63,564 bases of DNA, filler included, from Reclinomonas americana ATCC 50394 (GCA_048213135.1; 9 parts of 9 records of this genome joined end to end with filler, not necessarily neighbours in it), one strand, 5' to 3'; positions 3,563-62,389 are shown, counted from the whole stretch's first letter. The notes: generated from the letters alone by a model not told the origin. Translations and numbers: made by a program.

Positions 3563-6500
3563 ATGGGCATCTCGACGTCGTTTGAGTCGCTGTGGGCACT
3601 GTGTGATCCCTCCACTGGCACTCTCCATGTGCATGGAGTGGTGCCACCTCATAAGAGGTTCGCCAAACACACTCACGCAAGCACAAACTCTCTCTCTCTC
3701 TCTCTCTCTCAAAAGCACACACACTAACACGCTCCTCTCCTTGTCACTCACTCGCTCGATCACCATCCCTTCCCTCCCTTCCCTTCCCTCCTGTCTCCTT
3801 CCCTCTCTCGTTTACTCCCCACTCACTCACTCTCTCTCTCCTCACTCTCTCCTTCTTCTCCCTCCCCTCCCCATCTCCGTCCCTCTCCCCTTCCCCTTCC
3901 CTCCCTCCCTCTCACTCACTTGTTTCCCGCAGACCGGCACTTCACGCAGTACTGGACGCCATTGATGCCGAATGCAGTGACGTGGTGCACAAGGTTCACT
4001 CCCTTGCCATTCTGCTGCCGCTTTCCATCACGTTTCATCTCACTCAGGCGACGAGTGCAGATTACGTTGCAGGTCACGTACAGCAACTTTGTGCCGGTGC
4101 GCAGTGCGTTGAGTGGTTGGCGCTTCTCCGATGGTCAGTGGCGACCGCTGTTACAGCGACCGCCTGACTTTAAGCGATTGTGGGATGCTCCGAGACCACC
4201 CAGTGCAGCGGATTGCAGGTGGGAGAAAGGAAGAGGGAAGAGGGAAGAGGGAAGAGAAGGGAGAGGGAAGGGGGAAAGGGGGGAGGAAGAAAGAGGAGAT
4301 AGGAAGTTTCTCCTGCTTGATGTCGCTGTGCTCCGTACTGTCGCTATGCTCCTATCGTCGATATGCTCCTTGTCGTCGCTGTGCTTCTTCTGATCGTTGT
4401 GCTCCTTGTCGTCGCTGCGCTCCTCGTCGCCACTGCTCTCCTGGTCATCGCTGTGCTTCTTGTCGTTTCTATGATCTTTGTCGCCGTGCTCCTTGCTGTA
4501 CTGTTCTCTTTGTCGTCAACTCTCCTCGTTGTCAGTGCTCTGCTTGTCATCGCTGTTCTCCTTCCTGACGCTGTGTTTTTTGTCATCGCTGTGCTCCTTG
4601 CCTTACTGTTCTCCTTGTCGTCGCTGTGCTCCTTGTCGTCGCTCTTCTCTTCATTGCCACTCTTCTCCTTGTCGTTGCTGCGCTCCTTGTCTTCGCTGTG
4701 CTCCTTGTCGTCGCTGTACTCCATGTCGTCACTGTGCTCCTTGTCATCGCTGGTCTCCTTGTCGTCGATGTGCTGCTTTCATCTCACTCCGCTCCTTGTT
4801 GTCACTCTTCTCCTTGTCGCCTCTCAGCGCCCCCTCTGGCAACCTTGTGGAACTCCTGGCGTCACAAGTGGATACGCAACAAGCAGCGGCAGGAAAGAAG
4901 AAGAAAGCCCTCCGACTTGTCACCTACAACGTGTGGTACGATCGGCGAGAGACCAAGGCACGCATCAACGCCCTTTTGCGCATCGTGGCCCGCGAAGATC
5001 CCGACGTGGTGGCCTTCCAGGTCCGTGTGCCCACCACACCTCCTCCCTGTGTCAACTTGCTTGTCTCATTTCTTGAGTGACTGGCAGGAGGTGTCATCCA
5101 CCGCCATGAAGGTTCTGTGCGAGAACAAGTTCGTGCAGCAGAACTACGACCTGTCGGAGATTGGTGGAGCGTCGTTTGAGCCATACGGACTGGTGATGTG
5201 CGTCAAGCGGAAACACCATGTTGTCTCGGTGGCCAGATACACGTTGCCGACGGTGCTCGTTGAGTATGCAGGAGGGAGGAAGGGAGGGAGGGTTGTCACT
5301 CGGTGTCTCGTGAGTCACGACTCCTGTGCCTCTTGCACGCTTTCTCTCCGCGCCACTCCCACTCTCTCCTTCGTTTTCGTCGGCTTACATTCCTGTCTCT
5401 CAGGACCGCTACCTGCTTGTAATGTGTTTGGAAACCGCTGATACACACACCCGTGTGTGTGTCGGCACTGCTCAGCTGGAGAACTTGGCATTGCAGCAAA
5501 CGGTACGTATTCTTGTCTGCTGTCATATGTTCTCCTCTTCCTCTTCGCCCTTCCCTCATTTCCTCCACTCGCTCTTCTCCTTCTCTCTTGCACTTCTTGC
5601 TGCTCTCTTGTCGCTTTCTCTCTCGCTGCTCCTCCTCTCGCTGCCCCTTTCTCTCTTCTCCTTTCTCTCTCCCCCTTTCTCTCTGTTCTTACTCGCTGTC
5701 CCTTTGTCTCGCCCCTTTCTCTCCCCGCCTGTCACTGGTCCCCCTTCTCGCTCCCTCTCGCTCTCCCTTTTCACCTCTCCCCTTGCACTCTCCCGTTTTT
5801 ATCTCACATTTCTCTCTTTCCCCTTACCACTCACCCCTTCACTATCCTTTTCTCTCCCACTTTCCTCTCACCCTCTCCTCCCTTTCTCTCCCTCCTCGCC
5901 TTCTCCTTCTGGTCCCCTTTCCTCCCCTTCTCACCCACCCGCCCTCTCAGCGACGCGAACAACTCAACGTGGCCTACGACATCCTGCGCAAATCACGAGC
6001 GGAAGTCGCCGTGCTGATGGGCGACTTTAACTTTATGAGCGAGTCGGAGAGCAAGTGTCTGCCCATGGACTTTGTGGACGCGTGGCGCGCAGTGCACGTT
6101 GGCGAGTGTGCAACGGGCATTCATGCGGTATCTTTTATTCGCTCCCCTAATATCTTCGCTGGCACGAGGTAAGCTGACGTGTTGCATAGAATGCCGGTCG
6201 GGGAAGCCAGTCCAGTTTCGCTCCGCTGGAGAGTCACGTTGGAGTGCCGGAGGCGGCGCCCAGGTAGAGTGATGTGGGAGGAGTGCGAAGAAATTGTTGT
6301 CGTGATGCTAACTTGTCAAGTGTTAGATCGCAACACCGGTCGGTCGAGATGCCTCCGATTGTGCCTCTCGGGCAGATGGTGAGCCGAGCGTGCATTACTG
6401 CTCACTCTCCACACCTCCTCACTGCGTTTCTTTGTCTGCACAAGGATGTTCGGCCGTCGATGCAGTCGCTTGTCGAGAGGCGCATGCTCGAGCGGCGCAT

Positions 6501-7886
6501 GTCGGCACTGTTGACGCCCAACGACAAGGCCGCACAGGGCGGTAGCACGTACGACTGCTTCCGCAATCTCATGGCCAGCCAGCCGTACAGGTGCGGGAGG
6601 TGAAGTTCAAGAGAGAGAATTCACGCACTCTCTCTTGACCCTGTTGCACGCAGAGAACGCTTGGACCGCATCACCATCTGTGCCGACACGGTCATGGGCT
6701 TGAGCGGTGGCGAGGCACTGCCACTCACCAACCAGCAGAGTTCTGTCGCTGGAAGGTTTCGAGTCTCGTCAACAGCTGATCTCACCCCCACCGTCATTCG
6801 CCGCCACATGGCAGTGCGGGAGGAGCGATCGGTGGCCGCACAGCAGTACTTTGACGTGAAAAGTTGCATCGTTGTCTTCTGTCTCTCAACCCTTACCCTC
6901 CCATTGTACTGACTGGGCTTTTGGGTCGAACAGAGGCTTCTCAAGCGCACATTGACATTGACGACACGTGCGAAGAAGATGGTTTGCGAGACGTTGTGCA
7001 GATTTGTGAAGTGTGTGGTTGCTGACGTCCCCACTCGAGCATTAGCAGCTGAGCCAGTGGCATCCGAGTCGCTTCAGCGTCCACCACCGCCCCTGGTCTG
7101 CAGTCTTTCTCCCCCATGTATCGCCCTCCATCAGCACTGGTATTCACCACATATTCCACCCCACGCAGAGAAGCAGATCGAGTATGCAACCGCTCTCCAA
7201 GCAACGCAGCCTGCTGTCACGCATGCGTCCACTCGGTCGCATGCCGGCCGCTGAGGGTCTCGAGGGACCAGAGCCACCATCCGACTCGGTCTCCGACATG
7301 CGCTCGGCGTCGGTGGAGGACGTGGTGCGCACCGTGGGTCTCTTGTCGTGGGTGCCAACCACTGTCAAGGTACGTTCCGTTTGCAACTCACCTCGCTCAA
7401 GTCAATCGACTCACGTGGCGAGCTATCAGATGCTGGGAACGGAACCATTCGAGGACACCCGACAACGGTGCACACAAGACAGCGGAGAGAGTGTATGTCT
7501 GGGAGCCAGCATGGCGGTCGACGACACCGACGACAGCGAAGAATCGCGCGAGAGACGAGCACTCCGCGAAGAAACCATCCGGTATGACCGCCCTTGCCGG
7601 TGCCCACTTTCCTTTGCCATCCCTCATTTCCCTGTGTGCCACGCAGCTTCCTCTACGGTCTCTACACAATCACCCGTTGCATGTTACTTGCTGCTGACTT
7701 TGGCGACTGACTGGCGATTGCACAGGTGCCAAGATCGAAGGTCCTCTGTGGGTCTCGGACCAGTTTCGTCGCACCACGATCTGCTTGTCGCAGCAGCCAC
7801 GAGTCTGTATCCTCACACTCAAGTTGCTGCACAGCTTCGGCCTGTCTGTCGAACTGGAGCAAGTCGCTGTCAACAACAGTCAATGA
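3563..7886 (+). CDS. Endonuclease/exonuclease/phosphatase (EEP) family protein, TDP2-like, with large insertions
   Basis: Spliced motifs in the expected order: LVTYNVW, DPDVVAFQE, GTAQLE, VLMGDFN, FVDAW, STYD, RLDRI, KMLGTEP, PLWVSDHFGL. About 14 introns. Confidence 0.85.
4315..4825 (+). repeat. 18-bp degenerate minisatellite (about CTGTGCTCCTTGTCGTCG) inside an intron of the EEP gene
   Basis: The unit is directly visible many times and produces the spurious DDKEHS and LLVVA ORFs in the track. Confidence 0.9.
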
Positions 7887-8245
7887 ACGTCCACTCATGT
7901 CACTGTGTCACACAGCTTCCTTGGTCTCTAATCACTAGTAGTGCAGCTGCAGGTGCCAAGATCTCCTTTGACTGCAGCTGCTGCCACGAGTCTACTCTAG
8001 CCTTCATGCTTCGGCCCAGCTGTCGCACTGTGTCAACAATAGTCAATCAGCGTCCACTCATGTTCACAGCTTCCGGTCTCTGATCACCAGTTGCACCTTG
8101 TTTGCTGCTGAAGTGCGTTAGTAGTGCAGCTGCAAGTTCCAAGATCTCCTTTGACTGCAGCTGCTGCCACGAGTCTACTCTAGTACTCATGCAGCTTCGG
8201 CCGTGCTGCAAGTCACCAGTCCATGAACGTCCACTCATGTCCTCT
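7720..8245 (+). repeat. Three degenerate tandem copies (about 165-230 bp) derived from the last intron and exon of the EEP gene
   Basis: Recurring blocks: CCAAGATC (about 7729, 7956, 8139), GCCACGAGTCT, GCTTCGGCC, and CGTCCACTCATGT (about 7888, 8051, 8228). Confidence 0.8.
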
Positions 8246-8271
8246 CTCGTCGCTGTCAGTCACGTGGACGC

Positions 8272-12518
<4,247 letters not shown>

Positions 12519-16100: not shown

Positions 16101-19100
16101 GAGGGTGTACAAAAGACTGACGCAGCGCACATAGTTATGCTGCAGAAGTTATCGCCCTCATCTTCCCTCCCTCTCTCCCTTCCTTCCCTTCCTTCCCTCC
16201 CTTTTGCCTTTCCCTTACCCCTCTTCCCCCATTTCGCAGGCCCCACATGCGACCTGTACGTGTTCGGCTTCCCCTCACTGACGGAGCGCGCCGATGACGC
16301 CGCCTCTCCACCACCGGAGGATGCGGATGGCGACGGTGCCGGCAGTGGGGCCGAGGACGAGCCACGACTGCGCGTTCCTGCACCACGCCGCGTCGTTGCA
16401 CCTGCCTCCACGCCGGCCGACGTTCTTGCAGATTTCACGGCGTTTGTTGGCCGTCCGGCGGAGCCACCGGTGTGTTTGCGTGTTTTTCTCTCTCTCCGTT
16501 GTGAAGATGGGAGCGACTGACACAAGGTTGTGGTAATGGTGTGGAAAATAGCTGTGGGCATTCGGCTATCATCAGTTGAGTTGCTTGCTAATAATGGTCG
16601 CACCCTACCTCTTCGCCGTTCACTCATGTGCGTGCACAGGTGCCGCTGGTCGTACCCTGACTCTGAAGTCATCACTGGAGTGGTAGACACGTACGCGGAG
16701 GAGCGCATTCCGCTGGAGTGCATCTGGCTGGTACGATGCTGCACACAGTGTTGTCGCTCTCCACTTTCATCTCATCGTGCTGGTTCTCCTCCAGGACATT
16801 GACTACATGGACGGCTACAAAGTGTTCACGACGCATCCGCAGCGGTTCCCTGATTTCCCGAACTTTATCGCCCGCATGCGTGAGCGCGGAGTTCGCACCG
16901 CCTGCATCTTGGATCCAGGGTACGTCTTGTGTGCCTGTTTGTTGACGTGTCCATGCAGGGAACCTCACTTGTTCTCCACCCGCCAGCATCAAGAAGGAGG
17001 CTGGCTATGATGTGTACGAGGAAGCGAAGGCGCGAGGCTACCTGGTCACCACGTTGCGTGCAATCGCTCAGCATCTCTTGTCCCCCTGTCGTATTCACTG
17101 GCAAGCAGGCGTCGTGACGAGGAGCTTGTATCGGTGGTGTGGCCCGACCCGGCGGGTGAGCGTGCACATCCCCTCTCATCTTCCTGCACTTGGTTACTGA
17201 ATCGTGGTGTGTTCTGCTCAGTGTTTCCGGACTTTTCGCGTCAGGTCCTTCATATCAGTGGCGTGTGATGGGTTGTCAACTGGCTGATCGTGCACTACAG
17301 GAGGTGCGCGAGTGGTGGGCTCGCCTGTGCCGCGATCGATACCTGGCAGCGGGGGTACGTGTGAATATGCTCGCTGCAAAGACACTTGCTGTCAGTGTGC
17401 TCACGCAGTCTCTCTCTCTCTCTTTTTCTCTTGCCCTTGATTCTTTCGTCTCCGGTCGCATTTCCTCTCGCCTCCCCTCGTTTCCTCTCGTCTCCTGTCG
17501 TTTCCTCTCGTCTCCTATCGTTTTCTCTGGTGTCCTATCGTTTCCTCTTGTCTCCTGCCGTTTCCTCTCGTCTCTTCTTGTTTCCTCTTGTATGTTGTCG
17601 CATCCTCCCTTGCTCTTCCCCCTTCGTCTTCCCCCTTCCTCTTCCCCCTTCCTCTTCCCCCTTCGTCTTCCCTCTTCCTCTTCCCCCTTTGTCTCCCCCT
17701 TCCGTCTCCCCCTTCCGTCTCCCCCTTCCGTCTCCCCCTCCGTCTTCCCGCTTCGTCTTCCCCCTTTCGTCTTCCCGCTTCGTCTTCTCCCTTCGTCTTC
17801 CCCCTTCGTCTTCCCCGTCCGTCTCTCCCCCTTTTCTTCCCCTTCCGTCTTCCCCTTCGTCTTCCCCCTCTCTTCCCCCTTCTCCCCCTTCACCCTTCCC
17901 CCTCTCCCTTCCCCCTTCTCCCCCCTTCGTCTTCCCCCTTCTCTCCCCCCTTCTCCCCCTTCTCCCCTCTTTGCAGTTGAGCGGCCTGTGGGTCGACATG
18001 AACGAGCCAGCGGCCTTCACTCCCAGCAAGACTATCCCGCTGTCGTCCAAGCACGGTTCCGCGTACCACGCGCAGATGCACAATCTGTATGGTGAGAGCG
18101 AGGGAACAGAGTGCATTGAGGTCGCACTTTGTCGTCTCGAGGCTCACCTCTCTGCGTGCAGGGTTCCACATGTCGCAGGTGGCGTCTCGCATGCCAGTGA
18201 GATGTTTGCTGACTTCCACTCCTTCTCGCTGAGTCCACGCGCGCTACTGCAGGCCACCTTTGCAGCGTGGAATGCCGAGTCTGGCAAGTCTGCGGCCGCC
18301 GAGACAACGGCCGTCGCAGTGGCCGATGACGGGGCGTCATCGTCAGCGCCATTGTTGCCAGCACAGGAAGCACCATGGGTGCTTACGCGCAGTGGATTCA
18401 CTGGTAACGCATTTTTACGCCTGTGCACGAGCTTCAGAATTTCTTACTCACTCGTCTGCCTGGTCGTCGCGCAGGAGTGCAAAAGTATGCATGGGTGTGG
18501 TGCGTCACTTGGCCGTGTTCTTGCTTGACTGCAAGGTCGTAGTACGTTGTTGTTGACTTTATCTGCAGGACTGGCGACAACACGTCGACCTACTTGCACC
18601 TCGGTCAGAGCATGCCGACGATGATGAATCTCGCGCTGTCGGGTGTGCCATTCACCGGCGCCGACATTGGTGCGTTCCTTTCTGCATTTGCTTCTCTCCT
18701 GCACCTCGTCGCTGACTTGCCCGTACGACGCAGGTGGCTTTTCCCAGAACTGCACGTCGCATCTGCTGGCTCGCTGGACATGGGTGCGTCTCCATTCACA
18801 TCTATTCATCCTGTTGTATTTTCTTATCATTCACTCCTTTTGCAACAGCACGGCGTACTCTATCCTTTCATGCGCAATCACTCGGCCAAGGGCACTCGTG
18901 GCCAGGAGCCGTGGGCCTTTGGGGCCGACACGTGTGCCATTGTGCGTTCGGCCATTCGCTTCCGCTACCTCATCCTGCCGGTACGCGTTGACGCACATTG
19001 TTTGCACTCCATTCGGGCGTTCACCATTCCCTCTCTGTGCAGTACATTTTCACAGAGGCACTCGCGTGCTGTGAGACCGGCCTTCCTCCTCTGCGACCGC

Positions 19101-20084
19101 TGCTACTCGAGTTCCCATTCGATTTGCAGTGCCGCAACATTGAAGACCAGGTGCCGTTTTCTCGTGCTCACCAACCCCGTGGACCCCGCTCCGTCACTCA
19201 CCTTCCGTGTGCAACCGCAGTGGATGTATGGCTCGCACATGCTGGCGGCACCGATTCTGCAGGCGCACACCAATCACCGCCACGTCTACCTGCCGGCGGG
19301 TGTGTGGCAGGACATGTTCACTGGCCAGGTGATTCAAGGCGGCCGCCACATTGTCGCCGAGGTGCCGCTGGAACGCACAGCACTGTACCAGCGAGCCAGC
19401 TCGGCCATTCCACTGCAGCAGTCCGAGGCCCTCAACACCTCGAGCAGCTCGTACCTCACTCACGTCGTGTTGCGTCTCCCATTTTTCCTTCAATTCTCCC
19501 CTCAGCAGTTGCCACTCACACTCTGCTGGCGCGAAAAAACAGGTGGCGCATCTTCCACGGTTACAACACGCACGCCGAGGGCATTCTCCGCCACCGACAA
19601 GTGCGTGACGGCCAGCTGGAGGACTTCACCATGAAGCTGAGCACGGCGCATCTGCCGCCGCCAGAGAGCATCGACGGCACGATCTGCGAGGTGACAATCC
19701 AGCCGTCGGGCAACGTGTCGCGTGTGGCGGTGAGTGGAGAGGGTGGACTGCATTGAGAGACTGGAGCCTCACCTTTCGTTTGTCTCCCCCTCTCGCTCAC
19801 AGTCGGTCACCATCGAAATCAGCTTTGAGCAGCAGCCACGACGAGTGGAGCTGGTCGGCGCCACCGGTCTCGCCGAGCCAGTGGCCAACGGCGACCTGGA
19901 GCCACTGTCGTTCCGCCACAGCGTCCTCGACCAAGTGCTGGCACATCGCGAGCGCGCGCAGTCACCCACCAACGTCCGCCCCGCCGAGCTGCGACACCTG
20001 TGGCTTGTCGAGCTGCCATTCGTGCCCACCGCGCTGTCGTCCTCCGACCCCGAAATCAAACTGCTCTTGCAAGTGGAGTACTGA
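13191..20084 (+). CDS. Glycoside hydrolase family 31 alpha-glucosidase
   Basis: Spliced motifs YYGTGERTGPL, PPLWAFGYHQCRWSY, IWLDIDYMDGYKVFT, ILDPGIK, VFPDF, the nucleophile motif LWVDMNEP, HNLYG, LTRSGF, the acid/base motif WTGDN, GADIGGF, PFMRNHS, QEPW, RPL, VYLPAG. No obvious signal peptide. Spans two gaps, so some exons may be missing. Confidence 0.95.
13335..13685 (+). repeat. (CTCA)n/(CA)n microsatellite in the first GH31 intron
   Basis: Directly visible. Confidence 0.95.
14005..14270 (+). repeat. (TTC)n/(CT)n microsatellite
   Basis: Directly visible and precedes a gap. Confidence 0.95.
15045..15500 (+). repeat. Intronic tandem duplication, period 243 bp
   Basis: GTGTGATCTTTGTCTCCGCTCATTCATATCTTCATTGACCG at 15101 and 15344. 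Confidence 0.9.
17440..17970 (+). repeat. C/T-rich minisatellite (about CCCCTTCGTCTTC) in a GH31 intron
   Basis: Directly visible. Confidence 0.85.
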
Positions 20085-38229: not shown

Positions 38230-39292
38230 ATGTCGTCCGCGCCAACCTCTGCGGCCGCTCCTCCCTCGTCGTCTGCGCAGTCGGCGAGTGCCGCTGGTGC
38301 CGCCTCTTCCTCCTCCTCTTCCTCGTCGTCCTCCACCGCAGCAGCCGCAGCAGCAGCAGCAGCAGCAGCAGCAGCGGGTTCAGGCAGTGTTGCAGGCGTG
38401 TCATCCTCCTCCTCGTCGTCCCTGTCTGCGCTCGGTGCCTCGTCGCCACTGCCACTGGAGTATGAGATGTTTGGTGTGGTGCATCGAGAGGATGTGGAGA
38501 CGCTGTGCCGCCTGTTGCGCTGCGTCACGGGGTGTGTCGACAGCAGCAAGTTCCGCTTGCATGAGTGCTTGTATCGCATGGCTGATGGTGCGCTGCTCTC
38601 TCATTCTCCCTCTGTCTCTGGGGTTGGGCTCATTGTTGGGTTGCTGCAGCCGATGATACGTCTGTGGTGCGAGTGTATCGCAATGTGCTGGAGGACACGC
38701 AGCACTCGCAGCGACAGCAGCTGCAGCCGCAGCCGCAGTCGGCAGCCGATCCGACGGCGAAGGGTGTGGGCGAGTGGGCTGTGTGCTGCTACGAGCCGCA
38801 GGTGATGGAGTACATGTATTCGTCGAACACGCCGCATGCGACGGTGCGACGAGTGGCGAAGAGCTACGCTTCTGGGACTCTCCAGCAGCATCTGCTGTTG
38901 ATGCGGTACAAGTTGCAGCACGAGTATGTCAAGGAGGGATCGGTGTTTACGTCGGCCGAGGGCACGCACATTGCCGTGTACCGCGTCATGCAGGTGCGTA
39001 TGCAGCATGCATTTCCGCCTCTTTCATGCATGGCTCACACGGCAAGCAGGTGGTGAACAGGGGGAAGCTCGACGAGCTGCAACCGGCCAGTGAGGATCAC
39101 TTTGTCGTGCACTTGTCACAGACCTTCCCCGACGACCACTCGCTGGCCAGTGCGCAGCCGGCCATGGCACAACTCGTCGACTCATTGAAACCGTTGCGTG
39201 TTGCCGGAGTTGTGTTATTTCCCCCGCCTCCTGCTGACAATGTGCGCCCGTGCAGCATCGTGCAACTAGAAGGCGAACGGCTGTACTCGTGA
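38230..39292 (+). CDS. MED18: Mediator complex subunit 18
   Basis: EYEMFGVV...LCRLLRCVTG, YKLQHEYVKEGSVF, HFVVHLS and QLVDSLKPIVQLE follow the Med18/Srb5 motif order. Three introns and a Ser/Ala-rich N-terminal tail. Confidence 0.8.
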
Positions 39293-45300: not shown

Positions 45301-48300
45301 AACGATCGTGCTTGTGGTCCTCGTGCTTGACCGGACTGAGCCGCAGGAGACCGAGGACACGAGAAAGCAGACTGCAGAAAGAAGGAAATGCCTTTAGCAA
45401 TACACCGCATGCAGGATCACGAACGTAATCACAAACTCACCATTTTGGGTATAAACAGGGCTTGATGTAGTGCTCGAGCGACTCACTGAGTGTCACTTCT
45501 CCCTTGCCACACGCCGCCATTGCCTCCATAAGGCAGGCATATGCGTCGCCATAGAACAGATACTTCCACCGACTCTGCAGTCCACCGACAAATGTGGCTG
45601 TCACCTTGCCGTACGCGATACCTGCGTCATCCAGTGAGCAACATATGGAGATACCTTGCACTACGCATGGTGGTGGTATGGTTAGCGTACCAATGTGCAC
45701 CATGAGGTGCGCCGTGTCGGACTCGTAGCAACCGGCCTCACGCATCAGTCGAGCGGCGCACAGGCACGCTCGAACGGCCGCACAGTTCATGTGCTCAATC
45801 ATCGCCATCGACTCCTCCACCGTCTCAAAGGCCTCCAGCATGGCCTCGCCTTTGCGCTGCGCTCGCAGCGACTCCACAAACATCAATACTTGTTCTTGAC
45901 AGAAGCGCTTTGTTCGCTTCGTCTCCGCCCGCTGTAATTGTGGCTCACAGTCAGCTTCAGCAGCAGGCGGCGATCGTCGACAAAGTGGATCATATGTGCA
46001 CGCAACGTCGTTGACAAAAAACACCACCACAGCGTCGCCGACAAAGTTGAGAATGTCGCCACCGCACTCCAACACAATCATCAGCAGCAAGCAGAAGTAC
46101 TCGTTGATGACAGTCGACAGCTGCTCCACGCCCTCGGCGCCCAGGGCGCACAGCGTTTCGGTGAGAGCTGTAAATCCACTGATATCGACCAGCATCAGAG
46201 CGCCCTCCATCTCGCGTCGAATGTTGCTGCCAAAGGTCGTGCGGCCCAACTTGACCATCTCCGACACAATATCTTGAATGCACAGTGGAACGTTGATGCT
46301 GTGCGCCAAGCGAGTGCCGATTGTCGTCAGTCGGGAGCCGCACACACAACGTGCAGAGGAGTCGGCACACATGCACTCACCGAACATCGACCATGTCTTT
46401 CTCGGGTCCCTCACGCGGGGCACCGACCGGTGGTGAAAACATGGTCTCCAGGTGGGCGGTGAGCTTTGTGCGTGCACCCGGACGTCGCACACCGAGGTCG
46501 CTGGTCTCGGAGCCGAGCACCGAAGAAAAATCAATCTCTGTGCTGGAAGAGGCTGCTGACCGGCGGTCGTCGGCAGCCGATATCGGGGAGTAGACCTTGG
46601 CAAACTCGCCCTCCTTCTTTGTCGACGACGCTGCATCCTCTTCCTCGCCTTCGACGCGGAACGAGACATCGCGACGCTCGTCGTACTCCACTGGCGCCGA
46701 TGGCAGGCCGTTTCTGAGGAATGCAGTCAGCAAACAGTCGGGGAGCGAAAGTGTTCGTGCGCTAGCCAGCCTACCGACGGAGTGTGGCAATGTGATTCGA
46801 ATCAGAGCTGCCGCCCTTTTTCGATCTGTGCACGTCACGTGAGCCATACGGCAAGAGTGGATGGCACGAAGGCAGTGTCACGCAACTTGCGATACCAGTG
46901 CGGAGACATGCTGGGTGGTGGGGGCGCCTTGCGCACCGCCATCAGCAACTCCTTCTCACTCTCTGTCTCACCCGCAACGTCGCTATCAAAGCGGTCACCA
47001 CCAGGAAGGGGTATGGGTTCCACCGACATGGCGCCAGTCTGACTCGAGTCGTCGAAAATCGCCGTTGTCGGCAACACCATGGTGATCGACTGTGGACCGG
47101 CAGAGTGCATTGCTGGACTGCCTTCACTGGAAGCCTCTCCAATTGAGCCACTCGGCGATGGCGTGCTGCGCAAGCCACAAATAAAAGGATGAGATCCTCA
47201 CAACTCTGTGCGTAACACCGTAGTCTCATCACGCAACGCGCTGTCGCGACTCCCAATCTCAAGGTCGGGTCCATCGCTCTCGGGTGTATTGCGGCCCTTG
47301 CCATCGTGACTGTCGCGACTCCGGCCACTGACACTGCTTGATCGAGTGCCAAACTCCACCTCGTCGTCATCATCCTCCAGGCGCTCTGTGCGCAGCACGA
47401 TTTCGGGTGCATCCAACTCGTCGACCTCATCCGGCGGCAGCTTGAATGCAAGATCGTCCTCCTTGAACGTAAAGTTGCCAAAATGCAGCACATTGCCCGT
47501 CGTGCGAGCCTTTTCTGGCGGCGTGGCAGAGCCACCCAGTGCGAATCCCGACCAGCGAGCCATGTTTGCCATCGGGCCCACAGCAAGCATCGATCCACGA
47601 ATGTCGTCAATGGCGTCGGAGCCCAGCAGTCGAGCACGTGTACGCGCCTGGATCGCCGGGTCCAACAGGCCAATGCCAGACGGCAACTCCGACACCTTCG
47701 TGTCGAGCGCATACGGGCGTGGCTCTGGTGGATCCCACGATGCATTGATCGGCACCGTGCGCTGCAACAACCAGCCAAGTTCGGCCCACGCATCAATGTC
47801 CACGGTACGTCCCGGTGATATGCCACGCGTCAACACGAGCTGCTCTTCGGTGGGAGGGTTTGGCATCCTTCGCGTCATTGTCGGCCCCGCCGTGGATGGT
47901 CGGCATCCAGCGAGTGCTCTCGCCACGGCAGCGGCGCTCGGTGGTGCCACTGGTCTCGGCAGCAGCGGGTTGTCGTCCTCAGTCGGCTCAGCTGGCGGTG
48001 CGACTTCGTCGGCAGTGGCGGTCGTGCGCACACTCAGCTGCGGAGTCGTCGCCAGCGACATGGTTTGCAGGAGCTTACTGTGCTCCAGTGGTGGTGGCAT
48101 GAGGCCCCCGCGCGCCGATGTCATTCGTGACGGCATGGTGTCCACGAATGTCGTCGTCAGTGTGTCGTCGTCCCTGCGGTTGCGCGAACAACATAAGACC
48201 GAGTACAATCGGTGAGGAAGGGAACGACTGTGCACACGCAACAAGTCGTGCCACGGCATGTCGTCGATGCTCGTGGGTCGTGGACGCCCGCCACGACTCG

Positions 48301-51138: not shown

Positions 51139-52922
51139 TTAGTCGTCGCCCTTGACCAAGCCAATGACCTTGACGTGTCGGATCGAGACGATCGAACCGC
51201 CGCGCACGTTGTTGGGGAAGCGCAGGCGCACGTACTTGCAGATCTGCTCGCCCGGCAGCGCGAATCGTTGCATCAGGTCACGCGTGCACTGGAACACCGA
51301 GAGCAGCGTCCAGTCGCCCAAGTGGCTTGATGTGTAGACCTCCACAGCCATGGGTGCGGGTTCGCCCGAGTGAATTTCGACTTGGGCCACAAAGCACTGA
51401 CCGCCGTCGGCCAGCGTGAGGTCGATTTCGGGTGATACCGTGCGGTACACCTGCTCGTCGTCGACCAGCACATTGTCGACAATGTTGTGCGGCTCGTGCA
51501 CCTGATCCCACTTGGAGTAGGCGTAGGGGTGCTGAATGGCGACGCGCAGTGGCTCCGACTGGTGCACCTGGGAGGCGACGCGGGCCAGATTGCGGCGCAG
51601 CGACTGCACCATGGGGTCCCACTCGTCGTACTTGACGTCGAGCTCCCTCTTCAGGTTCTCCTGGTCGCGCTGGCGCGCCTTCTCCGTCTCCTCCGCCTGC
51701 TGCAGGCGCAGGTTGAGGTCCGACACCTCGCCCTGCAGGGCCCCCACACGACCCTCGGCCGCGCGCAGTCGGGGCAGTGCGGAGCCATTGTCGCCGAGCA
51801 AGTCGGCCGGGATGGACAGCTCGTACGTCTCCAGCGACTCGAGGTACGCCAGCGACGCAGGCAAGCGGCGATCCGAGAACAACCGTGACAACTCGGCACT
51901 CTCGTCGCTGCGCGAGGGCGGAGAGAGAGAGAGTGGGGGGAAGGAGGATTAGTAACAGACGTGCACAAGACACAAATGAGTGTGGCAGTGCTGCGGCGAC
52001 TCACCGGAACTTGATGACCATGCTTTGCAGCGTGCGAAGCTTGTTCTCCAGAATGAGACGAGCCGAGCGAATCTTGCGGAACCAGCGCATGACCAGGAAG
52101 CGGCGCAGCACCGACTGGCCGCGCACCACCGAGTACTTGAAGCGCAGGTACGAGCGACGGCACTGGCGAGCCACCACATTGGCTTGGCACTTGAGCAGGC
52201 ACTTGCGAATGTGCTCGTACTGGTTGCGATCGCAGTGGCCGCGGAAGGTGGACTGAATGGCCGTGGCGGCAGAGTCGCGACGAATGCCGCGGTTCCGGCG
52301 GTACGAGGTGAAAGCGAGGAAGCCACGAATGGTCGCCTGCAGCTTGATGACCTTGTTGCGCACGTCGTTGTAGGCCTTGCGCGCCACAACTGCACAGCAC
52401 AGGAGTGAGCGAAATGGACAAAGGGGGAAAGGGGAAAGGACATGAAGAAGAGAGATGGTACGCAACATCCACGCCAGATGCGCTGCACCTCAACGGCAAA
52501 CTCCTGTTGCGCCGTGAGCAGCACCTGGTTGGCGGTCCATCGCTCGTCCGGATCGACACGCAAGCAGTTCTCGATAATGGAGCCAATCGCGTGGTATCTG
52601 GCACAGACGAAGATGAAGGAGGTGAGCGGAGCTGTCAAGCGATTCAGCTTTAAAAAGAAACTCACCCCTCCAGGCGAGACCAGTCGACCGAGGCCGTCAG
52701 CACATCGTCGCGGAAGGCCTCCTCGTTGGAGACGTCGAACGGCAGCTCACCAGTCACCAGCTGGTACAGCGTGACACCGAGGGCCCAGATATCCACCGGC
52801 AGGCCGTACGACTCCAGGCGCAGCAGCTCGGGCGCCCAGTACACCAGCGTGTGCGGGATGGCGGTGCCAATCAGAATCTTCGAGAAGAGCTTGTGCGTGC
52901 GGCGCGCCACATCGACCTCCAG
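51139..52922 (-). CDS. 3' half of pseudokinase gene: kinase C-lobe, IQ motifs, coiled coil, galactose-binding-like beta-sandwich
   Basis: YWAPE...VDIWALGVTLYQLVTGELPF, CLRVDPDERWTA. IQ motifs VQRIWRGFVARK, LQATIRGFLAF, IQSTFRGHCDR and CQANVVARQCRR. C-terminal KYVRLRF...VSIRHVKVIG. Confidence 0.85.
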
Positions 52923-53032
52923 CTGCACGGGGNNNNNNNNNNNNNNNNNNNNNNNNNNNNNNNNNNNNNNNNNNNNTTAATTAATTAANNNNNNNNNNNN
53001 NNNNNNNNNNNNNNNNNNNNNNNNNNNNNNNN

Positions 53033-55375: not shown

Positions 55376-55532
55376 GTGTGTTCCTCTGTTCTCCCCCTAT
55401 TCGCATCTCGGTGTGTGCTCAATTCCTTTCCTNNNNNNNNNNNNNNNNNNNNNNNNNNNNNNNNNNNNNNNNNNNNTTAATTAATTAANNNNNNNNNNNN
55501 NNNNNNNNNNNNNNNNNNNNNNNNNNNNNNNN

Positions 55533-56747
55533 TGTGCCAGCCATCACAGGTGCATAGTAGTGCTGCGCCGGGGCCGCCACGACCGGAGGTGCGGCCACCG
55601 GGAGCGCCAGCGCTGCCTGCGTGGCCACCAGTTGCGAGGCCAGGGTCAGGATCTCGGGTGGCACGCCCGGTATGACGGCCAGCTGAGCGAGCGCAGTGGC
55701 GAGGCCCGTGGCGCCTTGCGGTCCCTGCGAGTCGCGATGGTAAGAGAAGAGCAATGATCCCCTCTTGTACTCTGCGCACGCAACTGGAATGGTAGCCGAC
55801 TGCACCATCTGCTGCACGGCCGCTTGCCACGGAGCCACTTGCGGTGCCACGACAGGCACTGGTGCGCCGTAGGCCATTGGTGGTGGCGCCTGCGCGTACC
55901 ACGGTTGTGACACGGGCGGCGCGGCTGCACTGGGCGCGCCTCCCACCCCCGGTGCATACGGTCGATTATCGTAGGCCTGACGCGGTCGGCCAGCACCACC
56001 ACCACCAGCTGCTGCAGCTGCGGCTGCAGGTTCCGCACTCACACCACCGCGATGCCGATCGGGCGGAGGCTGGTACGGGCGATTCGGTTCAGCTTCGCGA
56101 TGCGGTCGCAGCTGCGGACCACCGCGTGGTGGCGATCGACTGACTGCACGCTTGTCGCCGGCCGCCGCCGGCAAGTTCCCCACCACTGCGCGCTCGAGAC
56201 GCTCACTGATTCTTCGCAACACCTCAACAGGGAACACACTCGGGTACCACGTGCGCATCAGCGTCACAAACAAATGTCGTGTTCGTGGATCGTAAACCTT
56301 GGTGCAAGAAAAAGGAGGAGTGTCAATCGCTCTCTGCATGGTGGAGCTCGCACAACGACGACGAATGACAGATGACGTTACATGTTCAAAGGCTCCACAA
56401 AAGGTGCGCTCCAGGTTGCGTGCAAACGCCTCGACGTACGATCCACCCACGTTCTTCACAATCGAATCGAGCAGATACATGGCCGGCAGCTTCTGATCCG
56501 GAGCCGCCTGCATGCACGACATGTGAGACACGCCTATTCTCTGTGCGTGCGAGGAGCAGCAACCCACCGACTCAATGTGCGCCTCCAATGCCATGACCAG
56601 CGCGTCGACCATCTCTGGCTGCGACGCATTGTCCTCGGCGACAAACGTGAGTGCATTGATCATGGGCTTGGAGTTGATGACCAGCTCGGCCAGGCCAGCA
56701 CGGAACTGGTCGTACAGGCGAGCGGCATCGCCGCTCAAGCGACTCAT
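55533..56747 (-). CDS. PCF11: PCF11 cleavage/polyadenylation factor, CID domain (partial, 3' end in gap)
   Basis: LAELVINSKPMINALTFVA...QKLPAMYLLDSIVKNVGGSYVEAF...LMRTW...VFP. Confidence 0.92.
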
Positions 56748-57318: not shown

Positions 57319-58947
57319 ATGGCGTCGGCCACGGCCACGCCGGAGACGATCATGAACATGTGGAGTGCGGATCCGACGGTGGTCGATGCGGCGTGCTCGC
57401 CGGTGCGGCGTGAGCAGATCAACTTGACCGTGTATCGACCGGCGGCGTCGACGCTCGCGGCGCCACCTCCCGCCCAGGTGGATTGGGATGCGGCGGCGGC
57501 GGCTGGGGAGCCGACGAGTTACAAGTTGTCGGCCTCGAAGGAAGCTTGTTGCGTGCGGAGAGGAGAGGGAGTACCGAAAAGGGGGGACAGGGAGAGGGAG
57601 TACGAAAAGGGAATTGGGAGTGATGTTCGTGGGAAGGAAGTGGCGTACTTATCTTCTCCTGCACGTTGTTGTTGTCTGAGCGACGGTGGAGTCGTGTCGT
57701 TGGTATTTCTCAGTTCCTTGTCTGATGACGAGTCGTTCTCGTTTCCGTCTTGCCCTTGGTTCTTCTCATTTGTGAGAAGAATGAGTCGTGCTGTATGGCG
57801 TGCTTATCTTCTCCTTCGCGTTGGTGTGGTCTGAGCGAAGAATGAGTCGTTGGTATTTCTCTCAGTACCTTGTTTGGATTAATGAGTCGTTCTCGTCCAA
57901 CTGTCTCCTGTCCCCTCTCCTCTCGTCTCGCGAAGAATATATGTTGTGCTGTGGCGTAATTCTCTTCTGTTCCTTTGCGCGTGGGTGTTGCTGGAGTCGC
58001 GCCTTGGTGTTTCTCAGTTCTTTGTCTGGAACGACTGGTTGTATTCGAGCCCTTGGTTTTTCTCATTCATGAGAAGGATGAGTTCCGTCCCTTCCTTTGC
58101 GTGGGTGTTGTTTGAGCGACGGTGGAGCGTCTTTGGTGTTTCTCGTTCCTTCTGTGCATCAACAAGTCGTTCTTGTGTCCGTCGAGCCTTTGCTTCTTCT
58201 CTTTTTACCTCGCGAGTGATGGGCTGTGCTTCGTGGTATCCTGCTCTTCCGTTCCCCCCTCCTTCGCATGGGTGTTGTTTGAGCGACGGTGGAGCGTCTT
58301 TGGTATTTCTCGTTTCCTTCTGTGCATCAGCAAGTCGTTCTTGTGTCCATCGAGCCCTTGCTTCTTCTCTTCTTACCTCGCGAGTGATGGGCTGTGCTTC
58401 GTGGTATCCTACTCTTCCGTTTCCCCCTCCTTTGCATGGGTGTTATTTGAGCGACGGTGGAGCCTTTGGTATTTCTCGTTTCCTTGTGTGCATGAACAAG
58501 TCGTTCTTGTATCCGTCGAGCCCTTGTTTCTTCTCTTTTTACCTCGCGTTGATGGGTTGTGCTTCGTGGTATCCTACTCTTCCGTTCCCCTCCTTCGCAT
58601 GGGTGTGCTGGAGATACAACAGATCGTTCTTGTGTCCATCTCGCCCTGGGTTTCTCGCTTCTCGTCTCGCGAAGGATGTGGTGTTCTCCTGTGCCGACTT
58701 GTTGTTGCTAGTCATCAGTTCATCGTCTGGTACGGATGGGTCGTTCTTGTGTCCATTACGCCCTTGGCTGTTCTCTTCTCGTCTCGCGAAGGATGATGGG
58801 CTGTGCTGCGGGGCGTTTCTCTTTCGCTGTTCTTCATCCAGTCTCTCCTCCTTCACGCCTCCACCCATCCCTTTCCCTTGTCCGCTCACTGTGCGATCCA
58901 CAGGGTGGGGCGAGCCGCAACCGAGACCGTTCGACGACCACCAGTAG
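57319..58947 (+). CDS. Small hypothetical protein (about 90 aa) split by a 1.35-kb repeat-filled intron
   Basis: Exon 1 (57319-57547) MASATATPETIMNMWSADP...KEA. Intron GTTGCGT...CCACAG. Exon 2 gives WWGEPQPRPFDDHQ*. No family recognised. Confidence 0.5.
57640..58830 (+). repeat. Tandem array of about seven degenerate units of 155-168 bp inside the intron
   Basis: GAGCGACGGTGGAG at 57678, 58114, 58281 and 58449. The central copies are nearly identical with a period of 167-168 bp. Confidence 0.92.
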
Positions 58948-59696: not shown

Positions 59697-59790
59697 TCTT
59701 CGTTCAAGTGTGCGTGTGTGAAGTAAGGACAGTTGCACTCGCGCGCGCGACTGTCCCTCGCTCGCACACAATCACACTTTCGTCTCGCTC

Positions 59791-62389
59791 ATGGCCGTGC
59801 TCGTTGACCGTGTGGAGTCGCCTGCACTCGAGCTCTCACAGCTCCTGGAGGAGCGATGCAAGATCGGCGGTCTGCGCAACGAAATCGCCGGCTTGCTCAG
59901 TGGCGGAGGCGACGTGCAGGCTCTGCGTCGTCTTACCGACGTGTGGACCTCGTCGGCCACNNNNNNNNNNNNNNNNNNNNNNNNNNNNNNNNNNNNNNNN
60001 NNNNTTAATTAATTAANNNNNNNNNNNNNNNNNNNNNNNNNNNNNNNNNNNNNNNNNNNNGCCTCGCTCGACGAGAAGTGTTGCGTCTGCTGTGCGCGTG
60101 TGTGAGAAGACAAGAGAGAGGCTGAACATGTGCACATGTCACGCACACAGTGGTTCGCGCAGCCTTTTCTGTGCTTGTGTCACTGGCGACACGGATTGGG
60201 CGGCGTGTGGATCGTGAGGCGGCACTGGAGAGTGCACTGGAGGCGGCGCGGACGCGCGCGGGGGAGGGACTATCGGAGGCCTCGCGTTTCCGCCTACTTT
60301 TGGTGCTCTACAATGCGGCCTCGGCGAGCTTGTCGCCGGTGCGCGCGCGTGTGTTTGGTGAGGCGGCGCGTGTGGCGTGCACAGAGGCGGAGAATGATCC
60401 GTCGCTGGCCATGGCGCTGTTGAGACAGAGCGAGGGTGTGGCGCAGGACTCCAAGACGTGGTCTACGGTTGCGTCGCTGCCCCGCTGCTCTCTCCTTGTC
60501 TCGCTGGTGATGCATCTCATGGTGCTGGGACACAGGTCACTGGCGATGATCGGCGTAATCTCATTCTGGTGCCGTGTGCCAACATGGCGCGGTTGGTGGG
60601 CAAGCCGGCAGAGGAGCTGTCGTGGTTGCTGCGTGCGCTGGNNNNNNNNNNNNNNNNNNNNNNNNNNNNNNNNNNNNNNNNNNNNNNNNNNNNNNNNNNN
60701 NNNNNNNNNNNNNNNNNNNNNNNNNNNNNNNNNNNNNNNNNNNNNNNNNNNNNNNNNNNNNNNNNNNNNNNNNNNNNNNNNNNNNNNNNNNNNNNNNNNN
60801 NNNNNNNNNNNNNNNNNNNNNNNNNNNNNNNNNNNNNNNNNNNNNNNNNNNNNNNNNNNNNNNNNNNNNNNNNNNNNNNNNNNNNNNNNNNNNNNNNNNN
60901 NNNNNNNNNNNNNNNNNNNNNNNNNNNNNNNNNNNNNNNNNNNNNNNNNNNNNNNNNNNNNNNNNNNNNNNNNNNNNNNNNNNNNNNNNNNNNNNNNNNN
61001 NNNNNNNNNNNNNNNNNNNNNNNNNNNNNNNNNNNNNNNNNNNNNNNNNNNNNNNNNNNNNNNNNNNNNNNNNNNNNNNNNNNNNNNNNNNNNNNNNNNN
61101 NNNNNNNNNNNNNNNNNNNNNNNNNNNNNNNNNNNNNNNNNNNNNNNNNNNNNNNNNNNNNNNNNNNNNNNNNNNNNNNNNNNNNNNNNNNNNNNNNNNN
61201 NNNNNNNNNNNNNNNNNNNNNNNNNNNNNNNNNNNNNNNNNNNNNNNNNNNNNNNNNNNNNNNNNNNNNNNNNNNNNNNNNNNNNNNNNNNNNNNNNNNN
61301 NNNNNNNNNNNNNNNNNNNNNNNNNNNNNNNNNNNNNNNNNNNNNNNNNNNNNNNNNNNNNNNNNNNNNNNNNNNNNNNNNNNNNNNNNNNNNNNNNNNN
61401 NNNNNNNNNNNNNNNNNNNNNNNNNNNNNNNNNNNNNNNNNNNNNNNNNNNNNNNNNNNNNNNNNNNNNNNNNNNNNNNNNNNNNNNNNNNNNNNNNNNN
61501 NNNNNNNNNNNNNNNNNNNNNNNNNNNNNNNNNNNNNNNNNNNNNNNNNNNNNNNNNNNNNNNNNNNNNNNNNNNNNNNNNNNNNNNNNNNNNNNNNNNN
61601 NNNNNNAGGAGGAGGCGGCGGAGAGTGCTCCGGAACTGGCAGTGCGCGCCGTCGTCGCTGCCATCTCCACACCAACGTTCTACGAGGTGCGTTCCATGCC
61701 TGCGGAGAGTTGTCTCGCCCAAAATGCTCACTTTATTTCCTCGTTCAGTTTGATCGCGTGCTGGCGCTGCCGGTGGTGCGTGCTCTGTCCGGTGATGCGT
61801 CGAAGCGCTGGGCGTTGGATTTGGCGCGCATCTTTGCCGAGGGCACCATGGAGCAGCTGCAGGCGTTTTACGGTGACGCAGCAAAGGCGCAGGCCGCCGA
61901 GAGGGCTGGTGTACCGCGCAACGACATTCAGGATCGGTTGCGGCTGCTGCAGCTGTGCGCCGAGTGGGCCTCGCAAAACGACGGCTCCGCAATGCCCAAG
62001 GCACTGACGTTTGCACGGGCGGCGGAGGTGAGTTCGTGCTGACACCCCTGTCTGGAGAGGGCAACAACCACCTCTAATTTGTTGTGTCTGGTGCAAATCG
62101 CAGTTGATGCAAGTGCGCGAGGAGGAGGTGGAGCGGTGGGTCGTCATGGCAGTACGCGCCGGCTTGGTGGATGCACGCATGAATGCCGTGCAAAAGACAA
62201 TAACGATTCGGTTCGTCTCTCGTGGCGCTCCTACCTTGTTGAGCGAAGTGCTGACTCGTGATATTTATCAGGTCGGCGGCACAGCGGACATTTGGCACGC
62301 GCGAGTGGCGGGCACTGGCTGGTCGCATCGCCGACTGGCGGAAGCATCTGCAGGCACTGGCCGGTGCCATTACCGGTTCGGCACCATAG
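59791..62389 (+). CDS. EIF3M: Eukaryotic translation initiation factor 3 subunit M (PCI domain)
   Basis: RFRLLLVLYN, AVVAAISTPTFYEFDRVLALPVVRAL, RLRLLQL, EEVERWVVMAVRAGLVDARMNAVQKTITIR and QRTFGTREWRALAGRIADW. Spans two gaps. Confidence 0.9.

Follow-up and report, generated by a model that had tools for sequence, protein, structure and literature searches.

Does Reclinomonas americana use a second form of 5' splice site that differs from its usual one by a single extra T and, if so, how would such sites be read? The question was raised by a preliminary description of a 63,564-nucleotide stretch of DNA from strain ATCC 50394 (GCA_048213135.1), hereafter the window, which listed 32 introns whose donors read GTT followed by the normal donor tail. 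The window is intron-dense eukaryotic DNA, and its scaffold was joined from contigs by N linkers.

Donor words and their frequency

The usual donors in the window are G/GTGCGT (the slash marks the exon-intron boundary), together with G/GTGAGT and G/GTACGT, and the last exon base is a nearly invariant G. A motif check over the whole stretch found that all 32 listed coordinates opened with GTT on the given strand. The preliminary description had named five heptamers (GTTGCGT, GTTGAGT, GTTTCGT, GTTACGT and GTTGTGT); this held for 26 of the 32 sites, 19 of them GTTGCGT, and failed at the other six, which read GTTGCAT (6863 and 29553), GTTGCGA (10871 and 32424), GTTGCGC (41572) and GTTTTGT (34672). 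GTTGCGT occurred in 30 copies on the two strands as compared with 13.22 +/- 3.61 expected from 100 dinucleotide shuffles, none of which reached 30, and a change from coding to noncoding sequence was found at 15 of 29 copies, versus 21 of 120 for GTGCGT. The sister words GTAGCGT, GTCGCGT and GTGGCGT were present in 2, 7 and 14 copies.

GTT donors made up about 5 of the 29 introns placed by homology, and 27 well-scoring cases were present among the 139 introns modelled by the gene finder. The class comprises approximately 17-21% of modelled introns in this one 63.6-kb window, in agreement with the earlier estimate of one in six, and any genome-wide share would be an extrapolation. Median intron length was 71 nt for the GTT class versus 67 nt for the canonical class, and a CAG 3' end was present in 27 of 29 versus 87 of 95 introns, respectively. 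As expected of U2-type GT-AG introns, GTT-class introns start with GT, end with AG and restore the reading frame when removed, judging by these 3' ends and by the homology alignments at five sites and the frame test described below.

Support for individual donors

Protein-guided spliced alignment, in which GT-AG boundaries were required and no donor matrix was used, put introns exactly at five GTT sites on the plus strand (9269, 10871, 16575, 17053 and 19469). Two of these are in the SelO gene: the intron at 9269..9805 (gca/GTTGTGT, phase 2), whose removal joins EPAA(H)CYCGHQF, and that at 10871..10938 (gga/GTTGCGA, phase 0), which joins FCHG/VLNTDN, each with 3/3 homologues. The GH31 glucosidase gene contains the introns at 16575..16639 (tca/GTTGAGT, phase 2; 6/6 homologues), joining GYH(Q)CRW, at 17053..17108 (cac/GTTGCGT, phase 2; 4/6 homologues) and at 19469..19542 (cgt/GTTGCGT; 1/6 homologues), joining THV(V)WRIF, which matches SLIWRIF of P0004. 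The other five GH31 homologues stopped earlier than 19469 or picked different introns, the tail being poorly conserved here. The conserved junctions that had been read by eye at 9269, 10871 and 16575 were thus recovered in every homologue.

Donors were also assessed by a frame-continuity test that is blind to donor sequence and uses codon usage on both sides together with the best nearby acceptor. Sites of the form GTT[GA][CA]GT were in frame in 10 of 10 cases (12/12 with looser cut-offs) and canonical G/GT[GA][CA]GT sites in 16 of 18 (23/25), while control GT[ACG][GA][CA]GT words were in frame in only 2 of 10 (3/16). Among the listed sites 15 were in frame and none was out of frame.

A home-made gene finder was retrained with one added donor class at a time, consisting of G-T-X plus the tail, where X is A, C, G or T. 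The total score was 2386.8 with no extra class and 2393.0, 2379.9, 2410.1 and 2584.9 for A, C, G and T, a change of +198 bits on adding the T class versus +6 for A, -7 for C and +23 for G. The extra-class donors used numbered 2, 10, 12 and 32, respectively. The two-class gene finder took 20 of the 32 listed sites as donors, including 17053 and 19469, and skipped three sites proven by homology (9269, 10871 and 16575).

On the plus strand, an endonuclease/exonuclease/phosphatase-family gene contains a long CT-rich intron at 5259..5950 (ctc/GTTGAGT), used in both the flat-donor and two-class runs of the gene finder, and an intron at 7763..7834 (cca/GTTTCGT), joining VSD(H)FGL, that the gene finder skips and the frame test places in frame. 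The frame test likewise supported 10871 and 17053. The last intron of a Med18-like gene (39193..39255, acc/GTTGCGT) is a by-eye assignment that the gene finder skips; it is 63 nt long, contains CTGAC and GTGCAG, and leaves the frame open to the stop. The donor at 57548..57554 (ctt/GTTGCGT) was used in the flat and two-class runs with an uncertain acceptor, the one chosen at +1356 being doubtful. At 60468..60474 (acg/GTTGCGT), the sole listed site with G at -1, the two-class gene finder used the donor and the intron enters an N gap, and the listed donor at 60080..60086 (agt/GTTGCGT) is 20 nt past an N linker with a weak phase-compatible alternative at +12.

Nine minus-strand GTT-class introns of a VPS13-like gene were all used by the two-class gene finder and were all in frame. 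Those at 23324..23390 (cga/GTTTCGT), 25623..25701 (aga/GTTGCGT), 26119..26198 (cga/GTTTCGT) and 32354..32424 (aga/GTTGCGA) were also used in the flat run. The others are at 28366..28431 (gat/GTTGCGT), 30751..30824 (caa/GTTACGT, with a phase-compatible alternative GT at +33), 33748..33818 (gtc/GTTGCGT), 35080..35166 (gga/GTTGCGT) and 35888..35959 (act/GTTGCGT). Unnamed genes on this strand contributed two-class introns at 40214..40283 (cct/GTTGCGT) and 48174..48242 (ctt/GTTGCGT; in frame), and introns found in both the flat and two-class runs at 42637..42705 (cgt/GTTGCGT), 42969..43028 (gca/GTTGCGT; in frame) and 45857..46006 (gac/GTTGCGT; weak phase-compatible alternative at -18). In a kinase/IQ gene, the intron at 52390..52466 (gat/GTTGCGT) was supported by the two-class gene finder and the frame test, and its flanking exons have IQ and Pkinase Pfam matches. 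Two minus-strand sites beyond the 32 were also found, 46714..46886 (caa/GTTGCGT; bulge-aligned and two-class gene finder) and 47166..47237 (cgc/GTTGCGT; two-class gene finder). The listed minus-strand donors at 27434..27440 (cga/GTTGCGT) and, in a CID-domain gene, 55778..55784 (cca/GTTGCGT) have the motif and no nearby alternative, with a coding-to-noncoding change at the former.

Pooling homology, the frame test and the two-class gene finder, 24 of the 32 listed sites were independently supported. These three tests neither supported nor refuted 6863, 27440, 29553, 34672, 39193, 41572, 55784 and 60080, of which 6863 and 34672 served as donors in the flat-donor run. A canonical-like GT (matrix score >=2) was absent within 45 nt of 26 of the 32 sites, and a phase-compatible alternative GT was near four (29553, 30824, 46006 and 60080). 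The cut position assigned from the genomic sequence is correct modulo 3, and exact at the five homology sites; at four of those five, shifting both ends by one base (G/TT...AGG/) would give an identical mRNA, and the GT-AG boundaries are preferred because they are more parsimonious. At the level of the DNA, these results establish the GTT donors as a real class of 5' splice sites. They also support the earlier proposal that the GTT form is in routine use as a second class of donor, on both strands and in 10 or more genes.

Exon context and register

The exon base preceding the cut differed sharply between the two classes. In donor sets partly picked by the home-made gene finder with matrices that favour the same features, the exon ended in G at 82/92 canonical donors versus 2/30 GTT donors; the homology-only set (23/23 versus 0/5) and the raw motif counts (A16, T9, C6 and G1 at the 32 listed sites) agree with this, though they are small. 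The composition of the GTT class at -1 resembled canonical -2 (chi-square p 0.70) and not canonical -1 (p 7e-16), and its -2 resembled canonical -3 (p 0.67). Sliding the donor matrix by one position gave scores of approximately 3-10 for all but two of the 32 listed sites (6863 scored 0.3 and 29553 scored 1.8), as compared with scores between -8 and -17 without the slide. The GTT donors match the consensus better one position later, exon included, as a +1 shift predicts. This shifted exon context suggests that both forms share one 7-mer signal, G[G/T]TGCGT, cut ahead of its first GT. The tail was tighter in the GTT class (C in 80% versus 50% at the matching position, G in 100% versus 95%), which is expected if it compensates for a lost pair. 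The scarcity of G at -1 in the GTT class (2/30) exceeds that at canonical -2 (12/92), and a shift alone does not predict this.

We consider it probable that the major spliceosome removes these as ordinary GT-AG introns, and that their donors are a second common form at which U1 pairs in the '+1 shifted' register. The donor signal would effectively be a 7-mer whose second letter is G in the usual form and T in the GTT form; in /GTTGCGT the sole GT begins one base earlier, and the cut would fall one base farther upstream with respect to the remaining letters. U1 snRNA would most likely pair alike with both forms, such that in the shifted register the intron G+1 takes the place of the exon -1 G, U+2 is mismatched, and +3 to +7 pair as +2 to +6 normally do. 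Catalysis would then use the nearest GU. The role of U1 as reader of the 7-mer, with U6 and U5 coping with the extra base, is something we infer. Counting against the shifted register, a U1 with a standard 5' end would, on paper, gain no strength from shifted pairing over plain H/GUGCGU pairing. The 63.6-kb window yielded no snRNA gene and no gene for a spliceosomal protein.

A bolder proposal, which we regard as tentative and less likely than the shifted register itself, is that a single 7-nt U1 register sets the site and the cut is made at whichever GU coincides with the expected position or closely precedes it, possibly with a second U1 whose 5' end matches GUUGCGU. About one fifth of introns would then be permanently +1 shifted, and introns could occupy positions at which G is not possible as the last exon base. 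It would, if true, be the first case in nature of a routine separation of U1 register from cleavage site.

The preliminary description had left the pairing as 'shifted or bulged', and the exon context favours the first of these. If U1 kept its normal register and a single U, at +2 or +3, were bulged out, GTTGCGT would simply be GTGCGT plus one T, and the gene finder does favour T under a bulge-type alignment as well, with the same ranking (+92 bits and 24 donors, versus 2-28 bits for A, C and G). Such a register has been validated in human cells, according to passages of PMC4856993. A bulge keeps the exon register, however, so G at -1 should equal or exceed its canonical frequency, and it is instead nearly lost in the modelled introns, in the homology-only set and at the listed sites (1/32). 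We therefore consider a bulged U unlikely.

Comparison with known splice-site systems

The proposed shifted register has a human counterpart. Roca and Krainer reportedly described in 2009 shifted human sites with the tail AAGU; the tail here is GCGU. The likeness that had been drawn to these atypical sites is upheld: in both, a U follows the GU at the cut, the remainder of the site fits the consensus with a delay of one position, and the exon context shows the same one-base offset. Human '+1 shifted' U1 pairing (Roca and Krainer 2009, as cited in passages of PMC4856993) is rare, while approximately 17-21% of modelled introns have the GTT form here, where U1 pairing is deduced. Sites in any validated noncanonical register amount to 1.5% of human sites in the estimate of Tan et al. 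given there. Human bulge +2/+3 and +3 sites also have one extra U after the GU relative to the consensus; 68 and 51 were predicted, of which 54 and 36 remained after curation (Roca et al. 2012; Tan et al. 2016; passages of PMC4856993). The GTT class differs from them in losing the -1 G preference and in a frequency orders of magnitude higher.

Another explanation, also improbable in our judgement, is that a dedicated second snRNA (for example a U1 paralogue with a 5' end fully complementary to GUUGCGU) or an altered U1C, Luc7 or Prp8 reads the class, in place of an ordinary U1 that tolerates a mismatch. The class is frequent, uniform and tighter in its tail than the canonical one, as such a reader would suggest, and co-evolved U1 5' ends exist elsewhere: in the portion of the preprint 10.1101/2022.06.08.495308 consulted, Entamoeba has GUUUGU donors with U1 ACAAAC, and Mastigamoeba has GUACGU donors with a candidate U1 ACGUAC. 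Against this, Thecamonas and Micromonas pusilla keep a standard U1 despite a +4 pyrimidine, according to the same portion. The Entamoeba and Mastigamoeba donors indicate that +3 U can be normal and that +4 C can be a lineage trait, as here, but each is a single transformed consensus for nearly all introns, whereas two forms offset by one base occur here within the same genes.

Least probable of all is that the class is unreal, through mis-modelled junctions, an erroneous T from homopolymer or assembly error, or a repeated mobile intron family: most listed sites do lie in the poorly conserved VPS13-like and unnamed genes and were chosen among alternatives, phase-compatible at four sites, on a scaffold stitched across N linkers, but against this stand the five sites fixed through homology, the frame test and the 26 sites lacking a canonical-like GT nearby. 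A random extra T would fall at donors with -1 G about 89% of the time and leave a canonical context, which the observed context contradicts; the scarcity of -1 G thus argues, indirectly, against read error. Introner elements, which are intron families derived from transposons, would likewise yield many introns with identical splice-site words, but their copies are alike inside, and no internal 9-mer was common to any of the 210 GTT-class intron pairs compared.

U12-type introns, which have the donor consensus /[AG]TATCCTT (/RTATCCTT) and a branch site near the 3' end, are also a second class alongside the major one. Their donor is dissimilar: 21 GTT-class introns all open with GTT[GAT][CAT]G rather than GTATCC, and the 3' ends and lengths of the GTT class equal those of the canonical class. 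Donors of the GTT form would misdirect ordinary gene finders applied to this sequence.

Junctions placed by protein homology

Introns that begin with GTT followed by a normal donor tail, as in GTTGCGT (the GTT class), were placed in two plus-strand genes by a self-written protein-to-genome aligner, which charges one fixed cost for every intron running from GT to AG and is blind to the donor sequence. The SelO gene (8.3-12.6 kb) was aligned with three homologues (P0001-P0003, 53-58% identity to one exon), and the family-31 glycosyl hydrolase gene (GH31; 13.7-20 kb) with six. Sites are named by their first intron base and a slash marks the cut. In SelO, introns at 9269 (+, gca/GTTGTGT) and 10871 (+, gga/GTTGCGA) appeared in all three alignments and restored ..AAHCYCGHQF.. 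and ..FCHG/VLNTDN.., respectively, without gaps. In GH31, the intron at 16575 (+, tca/GTTGAGT) was found in all six alignments and restored GYHQCRW, the one at 17053 (+, cac/GTTGCGT) was found in four of the six, and the one at 19469 (+, cgt/GTTGCGT) in a single alignment, where it restored ..VVWRIF against ..LIWRIF; this C-terminal part is poorly conserved, and the other five alignments stopped earlier or took different introns in it. Spliced alignment with all homologues placed three of the junctions that the preliminary description had fixed by motifs, namely CYCGHQF (9269), FCHG/VLNTDN (10871) and YHQCRW (16575). At four of the five sites the intron and the exon after it start with the same base, and moving both cuts one base downstream would leave the mRNA unchanged; the GT-AG reading is the more parsimonious, and was chosen over G/TT...AGG on that ground.

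Canonical donors usually read G/GTGCGT, and also G/GTGAGT or G/GTACGT; in those placed by homology between 9829 and 19151 (+), the tail leans towards a +3 G and a +4 C, as in GTGCGT. Three donors with homology support have a poor consensus, 17245 (+, cag/GTCCTTCA, five of six homologues), 11852 (+, gag/GTCCGTAC, three of three) and 18404 (+, ctg/GTAACGCA, five of six); some donors lie outside both classes. SelO also contains a 23-nt micro-exon, 9806-9828 (+), within ..CYCGHQF.. and between introns of 537 and 69 nt, placed with each of the three homologues.

Motif counts, reading frame and gene models

All 32 coordinates assigned to the class in the preliminary description start with GTT on their strand. 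The five heptamers that it named (GTTGCGT, GTTGAGT, GTTTCGT, GTTACGT and GTTGTGT) are present at 26 of these, 19 being GTTGCGT, and the remaining six deviate. GTT motifs in the window are above chance: GTTGCGT has 30 copies over the two strands, while 13.2 +/- 3.6 are expected from 100 dinucleotide-preserving shuffles, none of which reached 30. When the extra T is replaced by A, C or G, the copy numbers are 2, 7 and 14, respectively. Coding-like sequence gives way to non-coding-like sequence at 15 of 29 testable copies of GTTGCGT and at 21 of 120 copies of GTGCGT, many of which are intronic; GTGGCGT and [ACT]TTGCGT gave 1/12 and 1/17.

In a frame test that ignored the donor, every motif copy was joined to the best-scoring acceptor 40-130 nt downstream, the flanking frames were taken from codon usage alone, and a copy counted as in frame when excision of the intron united them. 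The GTT[GA][CA]GT motif was in frame in 10 of 10 cases (12/12 with looser cut-offs) and canonical G/GT[GA][CA]GT in 16 of 18 (23/25), while the control GT[ACG][GA][CA]GT reached 2 of 10 (3/16), the chance level of one third. Fifteen of the 32 listed sites pass and none fails, the out-of-frame cases of the looser motif being other sites. This test excludes a cut displaced by one base at the donor only. A long-range acceptor heuristic placed 18 of the 32 in frame (P 0.006) and was not relied on, as it often skips to a later intron's acceptor and mis-scores even homology-proven sites.

A dynamic-programming exon/intron gene finder, built from codon log-odds and acceptor and donor matrices all trained on the window, converged on G/GT[GA][CA]GT(G)(T) when given one donor matrix. 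One extra class, G-T-X plus the normal tail, was then added, and the model was fully retrained whenever X was changed. Without an extra class the total score came to 2386.8, and with X as A, C, G and T to 2393.0, 2379.9, 2410.1 and 2584.9; these four models used 2, 10, 12 and 32 extra-class donors, of which 1, 3, 5 and 27 scored well. The four bases kept this order when the extra base was treated as a bulge, and also with parameters fixed. The two-class model used 20 of the 32 listed sites and added GTT donors at 46886 and 47237; it is imperfect, missing the homology-proven sites 9269, 10871 and 16575. A run with a flat donor was noisy and used 11 of the 32. With homology, frame test and model combined, 24 of the 32 proposed donors are supported and eight are left without that support. 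A canonical-like GT within 45 nt is absent at 26 of the 32, and a phase-compatible alternative exists at four. The GTT class makes up about 17% of introns by homology (about 5 of 29 well-placed introns in SelO and GH31) and 19-23% by gene finder (27/139 and 29/126) in this one window, in agreement with the 32 of 170-180 introns estimated by hand in the preliminary description.

Several other gene-finder sites are doubtful. The donor called at 7374 is probably aag/GTACGTT, 4 nt upstream; 4108, 33285 and 36130 have strong canonical GTs close by, and 18354, 28795 and 31303 score poorly. The donor at 8481 (+, tcg/GTTAGGG) entered the combined set of 30 GTT sites by a crude rule. Both it and 10409 (+, agg/GTTCGTC) have T at +3 yet keep normal spacing and a G at -1 (the last exon base), so +3 T by itself is not diagnostic of the shifted class.

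Exon context and the proposed U1 register

The two classes differ in the exon. G at -1 was found in 23/23 canonical donors of the homology-only set, which is stricter than in most eukaryotes, and in 0/5 GTT donors; the corresponding figures in the combined sets, which were partly picked by matrices rewarding -1 G (canonical) or mildly penalising it (GTT class), were 82/92 and 2/30. In the 32 listed sites the -1 base is A in 16, T in nine, C in six and G in one, and G precedes GTTGCGT in 2 of 29 testable copies, so that the raw-motif, listed-site and homology-only counts, small as they are, point in the same direction. The -1 composition of GTT donors is indistinguishable from canonical -2 (p 0.70) and unlike canonical -1 (p 7e-16), and their -2 resembles canonical -3 (p 0.67). 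Since the exon context is displaced by one position, both forms are a single 7-mer, G-[G/T]-T-G-C-G-T, and the cut falls ahead of the first GT in it.

At matching positions the tail is closer to consensus in the GTT class than in canonical donors (C 80% vs 50%, G 100% vs 95%, T 90% vs 81%). Short introns have median lengths of 71 nt (GTT) and 67 nt (canonical), CAG forms the final three bases in 27/29 and 87/95, respectively, and pyrimidine content is the same. A CTRAY branch motif was present in only a minority of short introns of either class (4/21 GTT, 23/77 canonical) and is not informative, and intron phase counts of 11/6/10 (GTT) and 36/21/13 (canonical) show a non-significant trend (p 0.16). 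An introner family was rejected: none of 210 pairs of GTT-class introns has a common internal 9-mer, so that they are independent introns, not mobile-element copies. An identity as U12-type introns was also rejected, the donors being unlike the U12-type consensus.

We favour a single recognition event on the 7-mer, presumably by U1, with cleavage at the nearest GU. The intron itself would provide the "-1 G" for pairing, U1 lying one base later relative to the cut (the shifted register), and U6 and U5 would have to accommodate the extra base. If the U1 5' end is of the textbook kind, shifted pairing has no obvious advantage in strength over plain pairing to H/GUGCGU, and an altered U1, or a second U1, may therefore read the GTT form. 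Co-evolution of U1 with donors is documented in Entamoeba, where U1 has ACAAAC and the donor is GUUUGU, and Mastigamoeba has a candidate U1 5' end ACGUAC; for other lineages preferring a +4 pyrimidine the same source reports a standard U1 (10.1101/2022.06.08.495308). A bulged +3 (or +2) register, in which one extra U is looped out and the exon stays in register, does not match the exon context of the GTT class, as it should keep or strengthen the -1 G and the data are opposite. Read errors adding a T to GTGCGT donors are disposed of, since stray T's would land mostly in donors with a -1 G, which GTT donors almost never have.

Shifted or bulged U1 pairing in human concerns a small fraction of sites and is relevant mainly to the interpretation of splice mutations. 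Tan et al. 2016 (PMC4856993), who describe both registers, predict 68 human 5' splice sites that use the bulge +2/+3 register and 51 that use +3, and estimate validated noncanonical registers of any kind at 1.5% of sites, whereas the GTT class amounts to some 17-23% of introns modelled in the window. No description of a comparable class in any organism was found in full-text literature, in which the motif words returned mainly primers and subscription journals are thinly covered, and this negative is weak evidence of novelty.

The interest of the GTT class hinges on transcript confirmation. A genome with roughly one in 5-6 introns of the shifted kind would serve as a natural experiment, both on cut-site choice after U1 binding and on the tolerance of U6 and U5 for an extra base, and would allow a test of snRNA or U1-protein co-evolution with the class. 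Meanwhile it is a concrete annotation hazard for this genome, as a sixth of its introns here would be positioned wrongly by any gene finder relying on one donor matrix: in our single-matrix run GTT sites scored -8 to -17, and 125 introns were modelled, 14 fewer than the 139 obtained with the extra T class.

Genes and assembly of the window

The window has a GC content of about 58% and is a piece of eukaryotic scaffold with very high intron density. Gene identities come from a Pfam scan of its stop-free (stop-to-stop) ORFs. Besides SelO and GH31, this identified an endonuclease/exonuclease/phosphatase-family gene (4.4-7.9 kb, +), a VPS13-like gene (22-37 kb, -), a Med18-like gene (about 38.6-39.3 kb, +), a protein kinase with IQ motifs (51-53 kb, -) and a CID-domain gene (55.5-56.8 kb, -); over long stretches these ORFs gave no family match. 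In the VPS13-like and unnamed genes the Pfam matches are weak and exon by exon, and 20 GTT sites fall outside homology checking. All inference on the GTT class draws on the window sequence itself together with a small number of homologous proteins. Among the 5.8 billion proteins of the searched collection, the nearest, none of them from the window, have only 36-58% identity over single exons, and an annotated close relative of the organism appears to be absent from that collection. Used as a query, exon 5951-6118 found no homologue; it belongs to the endonuclease/phosphatase-family gene, the gene in which 5259, 6863 and 7763 lie. The last SelO exon gave 342 pattern matches among metagenome contigs, with no relative among them. 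A scan of the whole window found no Rfam family at gathering thresholds, and mapping exons simply by GC3-GC2 gave too much noise.

The contigs are stitched by eight identical 100-nt linkers, each 44 N, TTAATTAATTAA and 44 N, at 2314-2413, 8713-8812, 14369-14468, 15634-15733, 35392-35491, 52933-53032, 55433-55532 and 59961-60060, and there are also two longer runs of N, each some 950 nt (37013-37943 and 60642-61606). Because of this stitching, the lengths of introns across linkers or gaps (e.g. 8481-9088) are untrustworthy. The introns at 5488-5950 and 9269-9805 (+) are unusually long, CT-rich and of low complexity for a population in which introns measure about 65-75 nt. At 5636-5755 there are 4.4 copies of a 27-nt unit, and near-duplicate blocks were seen by eye at about 9300-9560 and 7940-8200. 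Microsatellites, (CA)n, (GA)n and ACG/ACGT-rich, occupy 8480-8712 and 8813-8990 on either side of a linker in the first SelO intron, and probably account for the assembly break there.
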